From assembly GCF_055900595.2 (NCBI RefSeq), contig NZ_CM148325.1: a stretch of DNA of 64,000 nucleotides, one strand, 5' to 3'. A program made the translations under genes and the position numbers. Each line of letters begins with the position of its first letter. Position 1 is the stretch's first letter. This document shows positions 18,848 to 34,088 of the stretch, piece by piece. Under the pieces are notes generated by a model, which searched no databases, was not told the origin of the DNA, and worked only from the letters and a program-made list of their open reading frames with translations.

Positions 18848-18944
18848 ATCGTCACTTTTACTCTAAGAAAATTGTTGCGCATTATAGCTAATAAGCGCGT
18901 CATGTCATAAAGTTGAGGGCTTATTTTCATTTGAGGACCGCACC

Positions 18945-20054
18945 GTGGCGACATTAACCCGGCTTTTTATTCATCCTGTTAAATCGATGCGCGGCATTGG
19001 TCTTACACATGCTCTGGCAGATGTCAGTGGTCTGGCCTTCGATCGCATCTTTATGATCACGGAACCTGACGGTACGTTTATTACCGCTCGCCAGTTTCCC
19101 CAGATGGTACGGTTTACTCCTTCACCTGTGCATGATGGCTTGCATCTCACCGCACCAGATGGCAGTAGCGCATATGTTCGTTTTGCTGATTTCGCCACAC
19201 AAGACGCACCAACCGAAGTTTGGGGCACACATTTTACCGCGCGAATTGCGCCAGACGCGATCAACAAATGGTTAAGTGGATTTTTCTCCCGCGAAGTGCA
19301 ATTGCGCTGGGTGGGGCCACAAATGACCCGGCGCGTGAAACGCCACAACACTGTACCTCTGTCATTTGCTGATGGCTATCCTTACCTTCTTGCTAACGAA
19401 GCCTCGTTACGTGATCTCCAACAACGTTGTCCGGCCAGTGTAAAAATGGAGCAATTCCGCCCCAATCTGGTGGTTTCCGGCGCGTCAGCCTGGGAAGAAG
19501 ATAGCTGGAAAGTGATTCGTATTGGTGATGTGGTGTTTGATGTGGTTAAGCCTTGCAGCCGCTGTATTTTCACCACCGTCAGTCCGGAAAAAGGACAAAA
19601 GCATCCGGCAGGTGAACCATTAAAAACATTGCAATCTTTCCGAACAGCCCAGGATAACGGCGATGTCGATTTTGGTCAGAATTTAATTGCCCGTAATAGT
19701 GGCGTGATTCGCGTTGGCGACGAGGTGGAAATTCTTGCAACGGCTCCGGCGAAAGTTTACGGCGCAGCTGCCGTGGACGATACCGTCGACGCCGCGCAGC
19801 AACCGGACGCAAATGTAGATATTGACTGGCAAGGGCAGGCATTTCGTGGAAATAACCAACAGGTGCTGCTGGAGCAATTAGAAAATCAGGGAATTCGTAT
19901 CCCTTATTCTTGCCGCGCGGGCATTTGTGGAAGCTGCCGTGTTCAGCTTTTAGAAGGCGAAGTCACACCCCTCAAAAAATCAGCAATCAGCAATGATGGC
20001 ACCATTCTTTGCTGTAGTTGTGTGCCGAAGACTGCGCTTAAACTAGCGCGTTAA
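18945..20054 (+). CDS. ycbX: MOSC-domain protein with C-terminal 2Fe-2S ferredoxin domain, YcbX
   Basis: 369-aa [23 protein letters not shown]... starting at GTG 18945; C-terminal [11 protein letters not shown] ferredoxin motif. Confidence 0.9.
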
Positions 20055-20593
20055 ACTGCCTGTTCGAGGCTGAAACTGTCAACATTAACCTGCGGTTTCA
20101 GCCTGTCATTCATGATTTTGATGGCGTCCCCCAACTGCATCGCGCGACCCGCAATAACAACGCAGGGTTGTGCCAGCAGGCACAGTGCGGCATTTTCGCC
20201 AGATTCAACGACCAGCAAATTGACCTGCTCGTAAGTGTCGCTCAACCAAACGCAGGCCGCATCGCCCGGCATGGGCACCCACATTTCACCATGGGAAACA
20301 AAATGCCAGCTTTTCGGCATTTGTGGTTTGAGATAACGAATTGCTACCAGTGCATTGAGCACCAGTTCGGCTTTTTGTTCTTTGGATAAATTAAAATCGC
20401 GGCACTTTTCTTCAAACGAGAAATAGAGCGCGGCGTCGTCAACGCAAAAGCCTGCGGGAGAAAAGGCATCTGGAGTCAACATTTTGCGCGCAAAACGTGA
20501 GCGAAATAGCATACCATTGGCTAAATCGAGCATCATTCGATCGTGCTCTTCATCGTAATACCAACGCCAGTTATCGTCTGGTTTAATTCGCAT
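20051..20593 (-). CDS. zapC: FtsZ-associated cell division protein ZapC
   Basis: ORF 20051..20629; canonical ATG at 20593 ([27 protein letters not shown]...) gives 180 aa; 4-bp 3' overlap with ycbX. Confidence 0.9.
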
Positions 20594-20697
20594 TTGCCTC
20601 TCCCCTACCCTATAAAACCGCAGCAACACAATCCATTGTCGCTTCGCTTAATAACCTCAACAATAAAAGTACAAAATGTCTAAATAAGCAACAGCGA

Positions 20698-20734
20698 TGA
20701 ATATAAAACAACCAGGGCTTAAAATAAAGCCCTG
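20698..20734 (-). terminator. Probable intrinsic terminator of pyrD
   Basis: Stem CAGGGCTT/AAGCCCTG (20713-20734) followed on the minus strand by a T-rich tract. Confidence 0.5.
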
Positions 20735-20766
20735 ATTATCTTATAAAGAGAAATTCAAAGAAATAA

Positions 20767-21777
20767 TTAGATATGGTTAACGATTTCTTTAATCAGCGGC
20801 GGTCCTTTAAAAATAAAACCAGAATAAATTTGCACCAGTGAGGCCCCCGCAGCAATCTTTTCACGCGCAGCAATAACCGAGTCAATGCCGCCAACACCGA
20901 TGATCGGTAAGCGACCGTTTAATTCCTGTGACAAGCGGCGAATAATTTCTGTGCTTTTTAACTGAAGCGGACGACCACTTAAGCCACCGGTTTGATCACA
21001 ATTTTTCATTCCCTGAACCAGAGAACGATCGAGCGTGGTATTGGTTGCAATAACGCCATCAATATTATGGCGAACTAAACTATCGGCAACCTGGATCAAT
21101 TCTTTTTCAGAAAGATCCGGCGCGATCTTCACTGCGATCGGCACATATTTATGGTGCATCGCTTGCAAATCATTTTGCTTATTTTTAATCGCGGTTAAGA
21201 GATCATCCAGCGCTTCGCCATATTGCAGTGTGCGTAGTCCTGGGGTATTCGGCGATGAAATATTGATGGCGATATATCCCGCATAAGCATAGATTTTTTC
21301 CATACAAATCAGATAGTCATCTTTACCCTGCTCCACCGGCGTATCTTTATTTTTGCCGATGTTAATACCCAGGACGCCATCATAATGGGCTTTTTTTACG
21401 TTCTCTACGAGGTTATCAACGCCAAGATTATTAAAGCCCATACGGTTGATCAAACCTTCGGCATCTACCAGACGAAAGAGACGCGGCTTGTCATTACCTG
21501 GCTGTGGACGTGGCGTGACGGTACCGATCTCGATAGATCCAAACCCCATCGCGCCTAACGCGTCAATGCACTCCCCGTCTTTATCAAGACCGGCTGCCAG
21601 ACCAAGCGGATTTTTAAACGTCAGGCCCATGCAGTTAACAGGTTTCGCAGGCACTTTCTGCCGCACCAGTGCTTCAAACGGCGTTCCGGTAATGCGGCGT
21701 AATTGCTGAAAAGTAAACTCATGAGCGCGCTCTGGATCGAGCTGGAAAAGGGCTTTACGAACGAAGGGGTAGTACAT
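20767..21777 (-). CDS. pyrD: Dihydroorotate dehydrogenase (quinone)
   Basis: ATG at 21777 [38 protein letters not shown]..., 336 aa; ORF track extends 9 codons upstream. Confidence 0.95.
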
Positions 21778-21863
21778 GAACTCTCCTGGATTCCCGGTGT
21801 GCAAACCGGGGGCGTATTATGTGCGAGTTCGGACTAAAAGGGAATTGACCTGTGGCAAAAAAT

Positions 21864-21877
21864 AGCAAACGTTTTCT
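21864..21877. promoter_or_regulatory. PurR box upstream of pyrD
   Basis: AGCAAACGTTTTCT(T) matches the PurR operator core (ACGCAAACGTTTTCTT); 87-100 bp upstream of the pyrD ATG. Confidence 0.6.
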
Positions 21878-22013
21878 TATTGCGCTTTTTTTATGCTTTT
21901 TTTGGCTTTTCTTCCTCAGATAAATCATTTCGACTCGCGGGCCACCTCTGTCAGACTGACCGAATTGTTATCAATGTTAACAAAACAAGAACAATTGGTT
22001 ATAAGGAGAGAGT

Positions 22014-22589
22014 ATGCGTGTCATCACCCTGGCGGGTAGTCCTCGCTTTCCTTCTCGCTCCAGCTCCTTGCTGGAATATGCGCGGGAAAAACTGAATGGC
22101 CTGGATGTAGAGGTTTATCACTGGAATCTGCAAAACTTCGCCCCGGAAGATCTGCTCTATGCCCGTTTCGATAGTCCGGCGCTAAAAACCTTCACCGAAC
22201 AATTGCAACAGGCCGATGGGTTGATTGTCGCCACGCCAGTGTATAAAGCCGCCTATTCCGGAACGCTGAAAACCCTGCTCGACCTGCTGCCTGAACGCGC
22301 TTTGCAAGGCAAAGTGGTGCTGCCGCTGGCAACGGGCGGCACGGTGGCCCATCTGCTGGCAGTCGATTACGCACTTAAACCGGTTTTAAGCGCACTGAAA
22401 GCCCAGGAGATCCTGCACGGCGTATTTGCCGATGACTCGCAGGTGATTGATTACCACCACAAACCCCAGTTCACGCCAAATCTGCAAACCCGTCTTGATA
22501 CCGCGCTAGAAACTTTCTGGCAGGCACTTCACCGCCGTGATGTTCAGGTTCCTGACCTTCTTTCTCTGCGAGGTAATGCCCATGCGTAA
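22014..22589 (+). CDS. ssuE: NADPH-dependent FMN reductase SsuE
   Basis: 191-aa ORF MRVITLAGSPRFPSRSSSLLEYAREKLNGLDVEVYHWNLQNF...; first gene of ssuEADCB. Confidence 0.93.
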   Translation: MRVITLAGSPRFPSRSSSLLEYAREKLNGLDVEVYHWNLQNFAPEDLLYARFDSPALKTFTEQLQQADGLIVATPVYKAAYSGTLKTLLDLLPERALQGKVVLPLATGGTVAHLLAVDYALKPVLSALKAQEILHGVFADDSQVIDYHHKPQFTPNLQTRLDTALETFWQALHRRDVQVPDLLSLRGNAHA

Positions 22590-23541
22590 CATCATTAAAC
22601 TGGCGCTTGCGGGATTGCTTAGCGTCTCTACACTCGCAGTTGCCGCGGAATCTTCGCCAGAAGCGTTAAGGATTGGCTATCAGAAAAGCAATATCAGTTC
22701 GGTACTGGCGAAAAATTACCAAATGCTGGAAAAACGCTATCCGCAAACAAAAATCTCGTGGGTGGAGTTCCCGGCTGGCCCACAGATGCTGGAGGCGTTA
22801 AACGTTGGCAGTATCGATCTCGGCAGTACCGGGGATATTCCGCCAATCTTTGCCCAGGCTGCCGGGGCTGATTTGGTATACGTGGGCGTCGAGCCACCGA
22901 AGCCCAAAGCCGAAGTGATTCTGGTGGCAGAAAACAGCCCGATCAAAACCGTAGCCGATCTTAAAGGTCACAAAGTTGCCTTTCAGAAAGGTTCCAGTTC
23001 GCACAATCTTTTACTGCGAGCCCTTCGCCAGGCCGGGCTTAAATTCACGGATATTCAGCCCACTTACCTGACGCCTGCCGATGCCCGCGCCGCGTTCCAG
23101 CAAGGTAACGTTGACGCCTGGGCTATCTGGGATCCCTACTACTCCGCTGCATTATTACAGGGCGGCGTGCGGGTGCTGAAAGATGGCACCGGTCTCAATC
23201 AAACAGGATCGTTTTATCTGGCTGCCCGTCCGTATGCAGAAAAAAACGGCGCTTTTATTCAGGGCGTGCTGGCAACCTTTAGTGAGGCCGATGCGTTAAC
23301 CCGCAGTCAGCGTAAGCAAAGCATCGCTTTACTGGCAAAAACAATGGGTTTACCGGCACCGGTGATTGCCTCTTACTTAGATCATCGCCCTCCTACCACC
23401 ATCAAACCAGTTAACGCCGACGTTGCCGCCTTACAGCAGCAAACGGCAGATCTGTTTTATGAAAACCGTCTGGTACCGAAAAAAGTCGATATCCGCCAGC
23501 GCATCTGGCAGCCCACTCAACTGGAAGGAAAACAATTATGA
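22582..23541 (+). CDS. ssuA: Aliphatic sulfonate ABC transporter periplasmic binding protein SsuA
   Basis: ATG 22582 [37 protein letters not shown]... (319 aa) with signal peptide; overlaps ssuE end by 8 bp. Confidence 0.93.
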
Positions 23542-24683
23542 GTCTGAATATGTTCTGGTTTTTACCGACCCACGGTGACGGACATTACCTGGGAACGGAA
23601 GAAGGTTCACGCCTGGTTGATCATGATTATCTGCAACAAATTGCGCAAGCGGCGGATCGTCTGGGCTATACCGGTGTGCTAATTCCAACGGGGCGCTCCT
23701 GCGAAGATGCGTGGCTGGTGGCAGCGTCAATGATCCCGGTGACGCAGCGGCTGAAGTTTCTTGTCGCCCTGCGCCCCAGTGTGACATCGCCTACCGTTGC
23801 CGCCCGCCAGGCCGCCACGCTTGACCGTCTCTCTAACGGACGCGCGTTGTTTAACCTGGTCACAGGCAGCGATCCACAAGAGCTGGCAGGCGACGGCGTG
23901 TTCCTTGATCATAGCGAGCGTTACGAAGCCTCGGCAGAATTTACCCAGGTCTGGCGGCGGTTGTTGCTTGGCGAGACAGTGGATTTCAACGGCAAACATA
24001 TTCATGTGCGCGGAGCCAAACTGCTCTTCCCGCCGATTCAACAGCCCTATCCTCCGCTTTACTTTGGCGGCTCGTCAGACGTCGCCCAGGAGCTGGCGGC
24101 AGAACAAGTTGATCTCTACCTCACCTGGGGCGAACCGCCGGAACTGGTTAAAGAGAAAATCGAACACGTGCGGGCGAAAGCTGCCGCGCATGGACGCAAA
24201 ATTCGTTTCGGTATTCGTCTGCATGTGATTGTTCGTGAAACCAACGACGAAGCGTGGCAGGCCGCCGAGCGGTTAATCTCGCATCTTGATGATGAGACCA
24301 TCGCCAAAGCACAAGCCGCGTTTGCCCGCACCGATTCCGTGGGGCAGCAGCGAATGGCGGCGCTACATAACGGCAAGCGCGACAATCTGGAGATCAGCCC
24401 CAATTTATGGGCGGGCGTTGGCTTAGTGCGCGGCGGTGCCGGGACGGCGTTGGTGGGCGATGGTCCGACGGTCGCCGCGCGAATCAACGAATACGCTGCG
24501 CTTGGCATCGACAGCTTTGTGCTTTCTGGTTATCCGCATCTGGAAGAAGCGTATCGGGTCGGCGAGTTGTTGTTCCCACATCTGGATATTGCCATTCCGG
24601 AAATTCCCCAGCCACAACCGCTGAATCCGCAAGGCGAAGCGGTGGCGAATGATTTTATCCCCCGTAAAGTCGCGCAAAGCTAA
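23538..24683 (+). CDS. ssuD: FMNH2-dependent alkanesulfonate monooxygenase SsuD
   Basis: 381-aa [55 protein letters not shown]... Confidence 0.95.
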
Positions 24684-24694
24684 GGAACAAAATG

Positions 24695-25486
24695 ATGGCA
24701 ACGCCAGTGAAAAAGTGGTTATTGCGCGTTGCCCCCTGGTTTTTACCGGTGGGCATCGTGGCGGTGTGGCAACTGGCCTCCTCGGTTGGCTGGTTGTCGA
24801 CGCGTATTTTGCCCTCACCGGAAGGGGTGGTGACGGCGTTCTGGTCGCTCTCAGCCAGCGGCGAATTGTGGCAACATCTGGCGATCAGCTCCTGGCGGGC
24901 GCTGATTGGTTTTTCAGTTGGCGGATCGCTGGGCTTGATTCTGGGACTGATTAGCGGGCTGTCGCGCTGGGGAGAACGGCTGCTGGATACCTCAATTCAA
25001 ATGTTGCGCAACGTGCCGCATCTGGCGCTGATCCCACTGGTGATTTTGTGGTTTGGCATTGATGAATCCGCGAAAATCTTTCTGGTGGCGCTCGGCACAC
25101 TATTCCCCATTTATATCAACACCTGGCACGGCATCCGTAATATCGATCGCGGTCTGGTGGAGATGGCGCGTAGCTATGGATTATCCGGCATTCCGCTGTT
25201 TATCCATGTGATCCTGCCTGGTGCCCTGCCCTCAATTATGGTCGGCGTACGTTTTGCGTTGGGCCTGATGTGGCTGACGCTGATTGTTGCCGAAACTATT
25301 TCTGCCAATTCCGGCATTGGTTATCTGGCGATGAATGCACGGGAGTTTTTGCAAACGGATGTGGTGGTAGTCGCCATTATTCTCTACGCCCTGCTCGGCA
25401 AACTTGCTGACGTCAGCGCGCAGCTGTTAGAGCGCCTCTGGCTGCGCTGGAATCCGGCTTATCATTTGAAGGAGGCCACGGTATGA
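24695..25486 (+). CDS. ssuC: Aliphatic sulfonate ABC transporter permease SsuC
   Basis: [27 protein letters not shown]... (263 aa from second ATG; ORF track starts one codon earlier at 24692). Confidence 0.9.
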
Positions 25487-26250
25487 ATACTGCTCGTCTG
25501 AACCAGGGCACACCCTTGTTACTCAATGCAGTAAGCAAACATTACGCGGAAAATATCGTCCTGAACCAACTGGATTTACATATTCCCGCAGGTCAGTTTG
25601 TGGCGGTGGTGGGCCGCAGCGGTGGTGGCAAAAGTACCCTGCTGCGCCTGCTGGCAGGTCTGGAAACGCCAACCGCAGGCGATGTGTTAGCGGGGACCAC
25701 ACCGCTAGCTGAGATTCAGGAAGACACGCGAATGATGTTTCAGGATGCGCGTCTGCTACCGTGGAAATCGGTGATTGATAACGTTGGGCTGGGCCTTAAA
25801 GGCCAGTGGCGCGATGCCGCGCGTCGGGCGCTGGCTGCGGTAGGGCTGGAGAATCGCGCGCGGGAATGGCCTGCTGCACTTTCTGGCGGGCAGAAACAGC
25901 GTGTGGCGCTGGCAAGAGCGTTGATTCATCGACCGGGTTTATTATTGCTTGATGAACCGCTCGGGGCGCTGGACGCCCTGACTCGGCTCGAGATGCAGGA
26001 TTTGATTGTGTCACTTTGGCAGGAGCACGGCTTTACCGTACTGTTGGTGACGCATGATGTGAGCGAAGCGGTAGCAATGGCGGACCGGGTGTTGTTAATT
26101 GAAGAGGGAAAAATTGGTCTGGATTTGACGGTGGATATCCCCCGTCCGCGCCGGTTAGGGTCGGTGAGATTAGCGGAGCTGGAAGCGGAAGTGTTGCAAC
26201 GGGTGATGCAGCGTGGGCACTCTGAACAACCGATTCGGCGTCATGGTTAA
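25483..26250 (+). CDS. ssuB: Aliphatic sulfonate ABC transporter ATP-binding protein SsuB
   Basis: 255-aa ORF with Walker [10 protein letters not shown] and signature LSGGQKQR; start overlaps ssuC stop. Confidence 0.93.
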
Positions 26251-26252
26251 TA

Positions 26253-26452
26253 TGCCGGATGTGGCGCACAAAACCAGCGGTTTCAACGGATTGTAGGCCT
26301 GATAAGACGCGTCAAGCGTCGCATCAGGCATTTGGGCACGGCTGCCGGATGCGGCGTGAACGCCTTATCCAGCCTACAAAACCAGCATTTTCAACGGACT
26401 TGTAGGCCTGATAAGACGCGTCAAGCGTCGCATCCGGCATTTGGGCTCAAAA
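26253..26452. repeat. REP/BIME cluster (several REP units) between ssuB and pepN
   Basis: Near-identical 50-bp units GGA(T/C)TTGTAGGCCTGATAAGACGCGTCAAGCGTCGCATC(A/C)GGCATTTGGGC at 26299-26348 and 26395-26445 plus GCCGGATGCGGCGTGAACGCCTTATCCAGCCTAC; classic REP palindromes. Confidence 0.75.
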
Positions 26453-26455
26453 GTA

Positions 26456-32741: not shown

Positions 32742-32750
32742 TGCTCTGTT
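32742..32750. repeat. IS10 target-site duplication, left copy (TGCTCTGTT)
   Basis: 9-bp direct repeat identical to 34080-34088 and immediately flanking the IS10 termini; 9 bp is the IS10/Tn10 TSD length. Confidence 0.85.
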
Positions 32751-32796
32751 CTGATGAATCCCCTAATGATTTTGGTAAAAATCATTAAGTTAAGGT

Positions 32797-32865
32797 GGAT
32801 ACACATCTTGTCATATGATCAAATGGTTTCGCCAAAAATCAATAATCAGACAACAAAATGTGCGA
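32797..32865 (-). ncRNA. IS10 antisense RNA-OUT (pOUT transcript), predicted position
   Basis: Position inferred from established IS10 organisation (RNA-OUT ~69 nt, from about bp 115 outward to bp 47, overlapping the transposase start at bp 108, which here is 32858); not independently verified by folding. Confidence 0.45.
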
Positions 32866-34066
32866 ACTCGATATTTTACACGACTCTCTTTACCAATTCT
32901 GCCCCGAATTACACTTAAAACGACTCAACAGCTTAACGTTGGCTTGCCACGCCTTACTTGACTGTAAAACTCTCACTCTTACCGAACTTGGCCGTAACCT
33001 GCCAACCAAAGCGAGAACAAAACATAACATCAAACGAATCGACCGATTGTTAGGTAATCGTCACCTCCACAAAGAGCGACTCGCTGTATACCGTTGGCAT
33101 GCTAGCTTTATCTGTTCGGGCAATACGATGCCCATTGTACTTGTTGACTGGTCTGATATCCGTGAGCAAAAACGGCTTATGGTATTGCGAGCTTCAGTCG
33201 CACTACACGGTCGTTCTGTTACTCTTTATGAGAAAGCGTTCCCGCTTTCAGAGCAATGTTCAAAGAAAGCTCATGACCAATTTCTAGCCGACCTTGCGAG
33301 CATTCTACCGAGTAACACCACACCGCTCATTGTCAGTGATGCTGGCTTTAAAGTGCCATGGTATAAATCCGTTGAGAAGCTGGGTTGGTACTGGTTAAGT
33401 CGAGTAAGAGGAAAAGTACAATATGCAGACCTAGGAGCGGAAAACTGGAAACCTATCAGCAACTTACATGATATGTCATCTAGTCACTCAAAGACTTTAG
33501 GCTATAAGAGGCTGACTAAAAGCAATCCAATCTCATGCCAAATTCTATTGTATAAATCTCGCTCTAAAGGCCGAAAAAATCAGCGCTCGACACGGACTCA
33601 TTGTCACCACCCGTCACCTAAAATCTACTCAGCGTCGGCAAAGGAGCCATGGATTCTAGCAACTAACTTACCTGTTGAAATTCGAACACCCAAACAACTT
33701 GTTAATATCTATTCGAAGCGAATGCAGATTGAAGAAACCTTCCGAGACTTGAAAAGTCCTGCCTACGGACTAGGCCTACGCCATAGCCGAACGAGCAGCT
33801 CAGAGCGTTTTGATATCATGCTGCTAATCGCCCTGATGCTTCAACTAACATGTTGGCTTGCGGGCGTTCATGCTCAGAAACAAGGTTGGGACAAGCACTT
33901 CCAGGCTAACACAGTCAGAAATCGAAACGTACTCTCAACAGTTCGCTTAGGCATGGAAGTTTTGCGGCATTCTGGCTACACAATAACAAGGGAAGACTCA
34001 CTCGTGGCTGCAACCCTGCTTACTCAAAATCTATTCACACATGGTTACGTTTTGGGGAAATTATGA
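32858..34066 (+). CDS. IS10 transposase
   Basis: 402-aa [84 protein letters not shown]...; ATG at IS10 bp 108 as in canonical IS10. Confidence 0.95.
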
Positions 34067-34079
34067 GGGGATCTCTCAG

Positions 34080-34088
34080 TGCTCTGTT
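34080..34088. repeat. IS10 target-site duplication, right copy (TGCTCTGTT)
   Basis: Identical to 32742-32750; continues in frame into ompF codons [10 protein letters not shown]. Confidence 0.85.

Follow-up and report, generated by a model that had tools for sequence, protein, structure and literature searches.

A compact pyrD-ssuE spacer in Escherichia cryptic clade I probably retains the ancestral form of the elf fimbrial insertion site

The 64-kb stretch of DNA analyzed here (contig NZ_CM148325.1; hereafter the window) carries pyrD and ssuE side by side with only 236 bp between them, at the site where Escherichia coli K-12 holds the elfADCG-ycbUVF fimbrial operon. We conclude, with a probability of roughly 0.88, that this 236-bp spacer is the ancestral, never-occupied form of the locus and that K-12-type strains carry an elf insertion. 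The original prediction had described a clean presence/absence polymorphism in which the operon was absent relative to K-12; the clean polymorphism stands, as we found neither a scar nor a relocation, but the polarity is corrected, since the empty site is ancestral and the difference lies in an insertion in K-12 with nothing lost in the window strain.

The pyrD coding sequence (20767..21777, minus strand, with its ATG at 21777) specifies a quinone-dependent dihydroorotate dehydrogenase of 336 aa, and ssuE (22014..22589, plus strand) specifies an NADPH-dependent FMN reductase of 191 aa; both were taken from the ORF list, and each product is 99% identical in amino acid sequence to its K-12 counterpart. 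The two genes diverge from the intergenic DNA at 21778-22013. RefSeq annotation of NZ_CP098223.1, which is 100% identical over this region, gives the same pyrD, ssuE and spacing followed by ssuA, ssuD, ssuC, ssuB and pepN, confirming the direct adjacency that had been proposed. ssuE is the first gene of ssuEADCB (22014-26250), and the products of ssuA, ssuD, ssuC and ssuB, which follow it, share 96-99% aa identity with K-12. The MG1655 gene order is ssuE, elfA, elfD, elfC, elfG, ycbU, ycbV, ycbF, pyrD, exactly as the original prediction gave it for K-12.

Comparison with K-12 by blastn matched window positions 18863-21876 to K-12 1007682-1004668 and window positions 21946-26226 to K-12 997580-993301. 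This leaves 69 bp in the window (21877-21945) opposite 7,087 bp in K-12; the net 7,018 bp agree with the gap of about 7 kb that had been anticipated. When the seven K-12 proteins ElfA, ElfD, ElfC, ElfG, YcbU, YcbV and YcbF were searched against the 64-kb window by tblastn (E<=1e-3), zero matches were returned, and the interval between ssuE and pyrD thus holds 236 bp and no ELF/Ycb chaperone-usher operon. Elsewhere the window is colinear with K-12 except for an IS10 in ompF and three small intergenic length differences, which may reflect REP-type elements: the ssuB-pepN gap (window 26227-26453) is about 228 bp in the window vs 65 bp in K-12, and K-12 is longer by about 140 bp in the rlmL-ycbX gap (window 18863-18868) and by about 163 bp in the aspC-gloC gap (window about 36540).

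The spacer can be divided into four parts. Nearest to pyrD lies a PyrD leader, a cis-regulatory 5' leader at 21772..21845 on the minus strand (Rfam RF02373, 98.1 bits against a gathering score of 47, E=1.7e-17), which spans model positions 1-74 of 74 and so belongs to the family. A hairpin, CCCGGUUUGCACACCGGG, is predicted within it just upstream of the pyrD Shine-Dalgarno, and the leader is near-invariant between genera in our alignment. The assignment rests on the Rfam covariance model because the RNA fold by itself scored no better than shuffles (z=-1.1). Beyond the leader is a PurR-box-like operator, AGCAAACGTTTTCTTA, at 21864..21879 (no strand assigned), whose exact core, GCAAACGTTTTC, at 21865-21876 is the single exact copy in the 64-kb window. 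The motif GAAAACG(T/A)TTGC is kept in nearly all aligned empty-site spacers, where the only departures affect the first positions (a single G, a single T and a single GG substitution), and is present in 4/4 elf-bearing alleles; the full operator varies between AGCAAACGTTTTCTTA and ACGCAAACGTTTTCCG. Wilson and Turnbough are said to have placed pyrD under PurR repression in 1990. A PurR box and an ssuE ribosome-binding site had both been predicted in the spacer, and both sequences are there, with PurR itself expected to bind at 21864-21879 on the strength of the core motif and established knowledge.

The distal edge of the PurR box coincides with the right-hand elf insertion junction in K-12-type genomes, and homology with K-12 on the pyrD side ends at 21876. 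The central segment that follows (21877..21945, 69 bp, no strand assigned), which in K-12-type genomes is replaced by the 7,087-bp elf cassette, holds two moderately conserved blocks, AAATGATTTA and AAAAAGCATAAAAA. Homology with K-12 restarts at 21946 and continues through the 68-bp ssuE-proximal control region (21946..22013, plus strand), in which the blocks TTGTTATCAATGTTAA and GGTTATAAGGAG are strongly conserved between genera and the ssuE Shine-Dalgarno, AAGGAG, occupies 22003-22008. A simple scan of the spacer found no consensus sigma-70 promoter, which would fit an activator-dependent ssuE promoter. The ssuE promoter responds to sulfate starvation in a Cbl/CysB-dependent manner, and Cbl/CysB sites have been mapped in the upstream region of the K-12 ssu promoter. 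The regulatory roles we attach to the spacer blocks are putative and derive from their sequence. Measured against the elfADCG-ycbUVF locus of K-12 and O157 (ycbQRST; E. coli laminin-binding fimbriae), the window therefore shares the flanking genes and their order, the pyrD leader, the PurR-box core and the ssuE-proximal 68 bp, whereas K-12 lacks the ancestral 69 bp and has 7,087 bp (46.5% GC) in their place.

To place this difference in a wider frame, pyrD loci were collected from 80 species representatives, among which E. fergusonii and the E. coli type strain are not included, and K-12 proteins were mapped on them. Most of the 80 show ssuE and pyrD adjacent and divergent across a spacer of 236-255 bp. 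This arrangement is present in three other Escherichia representatives (E. whittamii, MOD1-EC7003 and SCPM-O-B-8794) and in Citrobacter, Enterobacter, Kosakonia, Klebsiella, Kluyvera, Leclercia, Lelliottia, Cedecea, Serratia and others. In a MAFFT alignment the window spacer aligned end to end with 15 outgroup spacers, the central 69 bp included, as an ancestral empty allele should. The spacers of Citrobacter, Enterobacter, Klebsiella, Kluyvera and other Enterobacteriaceae, 242-255 bp long, share with the window the PyrD leader, the PurR core, AAATGATTTA and the ssuE-proximal blocks; they differ in the central segment, where 35-45 of the 69 positions are identical, and in some genera by 8-11 bp of extra sequence after the PurR box.

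The central 69 bp carry most of the argument. We scored their similarity by local alignment against shuffles and obtained z=4-24 overall (p<=0.005): E. whittamii and the two other Escherichia empty sites match at 60-62 of 69 positions (z=23-24), and Citrobacter, Enterobacter, Klebsiella, Kluyvera, Leclercia and Cedecea at the 35-45 noted above (z=4-11). The same segment gave no blastn match to K-12, no significant local similarity to the elf-flanking DNA of K-12 (p=0.20), and no significant similarity by local alignment against shuffles to the ssuE-elfA intergenic DNA of K-12, Escherichia sp. E1V33 or Pseudocitrobacter (p=0.17-0.48). Since deletion from an occupied allele cannot remake these 69 bp, the empty site is the ancestral type and the elf cassette an insertion that replaced them. 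Comparison of the junction with other lineages, which had been recommended as a route to the ancestral state, thus returned an answer through the Enterobacteriaceae spacers and the 69-bp homology. It also follows from the missing 69 bp in K-12 that, farther than about 68 bp upstream of the ssuE ATG, the two alleles have unrelated DNA. At 46.5% GC against 48-55% for its flanks, the elf cassette gives a weak hint of foreign origin.

The opposite polarity, a clean loss of elf from a K-12-like occupied allele through illegitimate or IS-mediated recombination, has in its favor only the extra 7 kb that K-12 carries at this site. It is hardly credible given the 69 bp, which are homologous to outgroup empty sites and missing from occupied alleles, and given that the window bears the empty-allele signatures described below on both sides (GTCTGACAGAGG and GCTATTTTTTG) and not the occupied ones. 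Nor does the junction contain an IS, scar or pseudogene. The spacer at 21778-22013 yielded no IS remnant, truncated fimbrial gene, pseudogene or scar, in agreement with the original prediction; its full length aligns with empty sites from other species, and tblastn was negative. We accordingly rejected the junction as a candidate deletion scar, as it has no remnants and holds 69 bp of ancestral spacer, whose homology refutes deletion. Also rejected was a pure insertion in which nothing was replaced, which would need leftover homology to the 69 bp beside elf (p=0.17-0.48).

Occupied alleles beyond K-12 provide a view of how the cassette may have spread. Escherichia sp. E1V33 has an elf operon at the ssuE-pyrD site with 73-86% aa identity to K-12, and three Pseudocitrobacter loci (L028, L029 and L034) have a seven-gene elf-like operon at the same site with 55-76% aa identity. 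In these three loci ssuE is present, and ssuA, ssuD, ssuC and ssuB were not detected in the 10 kb fetched. The right junction reads as the ycbF stop, 10 nt and then GAAAACGTTTGC, the PurR-box core, in K-12, VTB97585v, E1V33 and the two Pseudocitrobacter species read there, and all elf-positive E. coli genomes sampled down the ranking lose homology at window position 21876. Just beyond the PurR box, 4/4 occupied alleles (K-12, VTB97585v, E1V33 and P. faecalis) carry the signature GCG(T/C)TTTTTTTG, whereas 8/8 empty alleles (the window, the B2-type W224N, SCPM, E. albertii, MOD1, E. whittamii, C. amalonaticus and S. enterica arizonae) carry GCTATTTNTTG; the G(T/C)T form is thus found in all four of the former and the TAT form in all eight of the latter. 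The window has GCTATTTTTTG, the flank signature of an empty allele. On the left side, within Escherichia, occupied alleles have GTCTGTCGGAGAG vs GTCTGACAGAGG in empty alleles. Because the right junction and flank signature are common to all elf-bearing alleles examined, these comparisons point to a single insertion that would have been passed on by recombination in the flanks. The presence of an elf-like operon in Pseudocitrobacter and in E1V33, itself a close relative of the empty E. whittamii, indicates that the locus has also undergone lateral transfer or repeated replacement, running in both directions.

The ssu side of the locus shows variation of its own. In E. albertii NBRC 107761 (L008 6975-11008) and S. 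enterica subsp. arizonae (L016 7182-11008), ssuEADCB is wholly absent, and immediately upstream of pyrD there is an 870-aa ORF, pepN-sized by length only; of the spacer, the half next to pyrD is retained with its empty-allele signature. The absence of the operon in these two taxa means that a second large indel varies at this locus in the genus and family. In Phytobacter, Kluyvera, some Klebsiella and one Kosakonia (L038, L039, L042, L047-L049, L051, L053, L054, L056, L060, L061, L063 and L068), ssuE lies beside pyrD, and ssuA/ssuD or all of ssuADCB went undetected within 10 kb, so that ssu composition varies while the ssuE-pyrD junction is kept.

Over 7.3 kb (7,306 bp), only eight complete genomes match the window without a difference, including 100117, E200086, E400634, E500002 and E600003, and these five have been typed as cryptic (clade I) ST485, OND:H45 (PMC13064198). 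The next-best empty-site matches include 2013C-4282 (97.3%) and EC42405 (96.7%), both clade I strains (PMC10100065). We assign the window to Escherichia cryptic clade I, ST485 type, on identity at one locus as distinct from whole-genome placement. Membership in clade I accounts for the 94-97.5% identity of the window to K-12 across the region. The ELF-negative locus of phylogroup B2 has the same 236-bp spacer and architecture without elf genes; its empty site differs from that of the window by 6 substitutions (97.5% identity), with the central 69 bp identical. In contrast, the flanking genes of the window represent a deep haplotype of their own, with 93-97.5% identity to B2 and K-12, as the window belongs to cryptic clade I and not to E. 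coli sensu stricto.

At least three clade I sublineages have the empty site, namely the ST485 type, 2013C-4282 and EC42405, and we infer that clade I never carried elf. For this clade, a site that was never occupied and one that was occupied and then replaced by an empty allele are indistinguishable, and a secondary loss of the latter kind, in which a clade I ancestor had elf and was later overwritten by the empty allele of another Escherichia lineage, merits consideration. Recombination is evident at the locus: in VTB97585v (NZ_CP178711.1, an elf-positive E. coli; L005 9283-11009) the pyrD/zapC segment reaches only 91-92% identity with other E. coli and 86-87% with other Escherichia species, and looks like an import from an unsampled donor. 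The ssu genes are also unusually diverse, with nucleotide identity across ssuEADCB of 93-96% in the window/K-12, window/B2-type and K-12/B2-type comparisons against 97-98% for most of the window, which suggests old haplotypes or frequent imports beside the elf site. A third point in favor of replacement is the patchiness of elf among close relatives, E1V33 being occupied and E. whittamii empty. However, the three distinct sublineages are all empty at 96.7-100% identity, the window spacer is, relative to its flanks, not unusually close to the spacer of any other lineage, and one more event is required. We therefore judge replacement unlikely and retain the reading of the window spacer as a never-occupied ancestral site.

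The empty site is common. A contiguous pyrD-spacer-ssuE empty junction was found in 1,354 of 5,426 complete E. coli genomes and elf DNA in 4,073 of them. The two counts sum to 5,427, a near-exact complement of the total, and hence at most a couple of empty-site genomes hold elf DNA elsewhere. Each elf-bearing genome has a median of one elf place, and 4,090 of 4,094 places are chromosomal. Relocation, with an intact elf operon elsewhere in this genome, is very improbable in light of this complementarity, the single chromosomal place per genome and the lack of any elf match by tblastn in the 64-kb window. A divergent elf-like operon such as Auf may be present elsewhere in the strain's genome, the elf search here having covered the 64-kb window. 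Published surveys agree with the counts: ELF was present in 0/195 B2 genomes, often missing in D, and found in >97% of A, B1, C, E and F (PMC8281228), and Ycb has been linked to phylogroups A, B1, D and E, whereas B2 has the related Auf operon in its place (Wurpel et al., PMC3559732). The absence of elf at ssuE-pyrD is thus real, ordinary and already published for E. coli phylogroups, to which cryptic clade I and the details of the junction are added here as minor points.

With the same 236-bp junction in a quarter of complete genomes and published absence in B2 and many D strains, the absence of elf is not the distinctive surface trait that had been proposed. The difference at ompF, which had been grouped with the absence of elf, is an unrelated IS10 insertion. 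This element measures 1,329 bp at 32751-34079 (whole feature 32742-34088), encodes a transposase ORF of 402 aa at 32858-34066 and is labeled 'IS4-like ISVsa5 family' by RefSeq. It is flanked by a 9-bp target duplication, TGCTCTGTT, and because it interrupts ompF about 43 bp into the CDS, OmpF is probably not made. Of the eight otherwise identical clade I complete genomes, none appeared among the best 12 matches to the ompF::IS10 region, where an identical single-piece match would rank first; the lab strain ET12567 has IS10 at the same ompF position.

These observations suggest a model in which the spacer would serve as a compact divergent control region, with the pyrD promoter, PurR operator and PyrD leader on one side and the Cbl/CysB-dependent ssuE promoter on the other. 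The 7.1-kb elfADCG-ycbUVF chaperone-usher cassette would have entered once, beside the distal edge of the PurR box, displacing 69 bp, and the occupied allele may then have spread through homologous recombination in the conserved flanks. The cryptic clade I ST485-type lineage would retain the empty allele, like phylogroup B2 and several other Escherichia species. More speculatively, after its single entry the cassette may have moved among Escherichia species, and between Escherichia and Pseudocitrobacter, together with a few flank bases by recombination in ssuE and pyrD; the upstream region of ssu in K-12 would then be non-ancestral, and control of ssuEADCB in lineages with an empty site, clade I and B2 among them, may depend on other upstream sites. 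We offer this extension tentatively, as a possibility we would not yet favor.

The absence of elf has little weight in itself, as ELF fimbriae are already recognized as an accessory trait that varies with phylogroup, and absence is the default ancestral state. The identification of the window as cryptic clade I accounts for its general level of identity to K-12. About a quarter of E. coli genomes, like most enterobacteria, have DNA upstream of ssuE that beyond about 68 bp is non-orthologous to that of K-12. The elf insertion may have changed the control of ssuE, and caution is warranted when K-12 ssu promoter maps are carried over to other strains.
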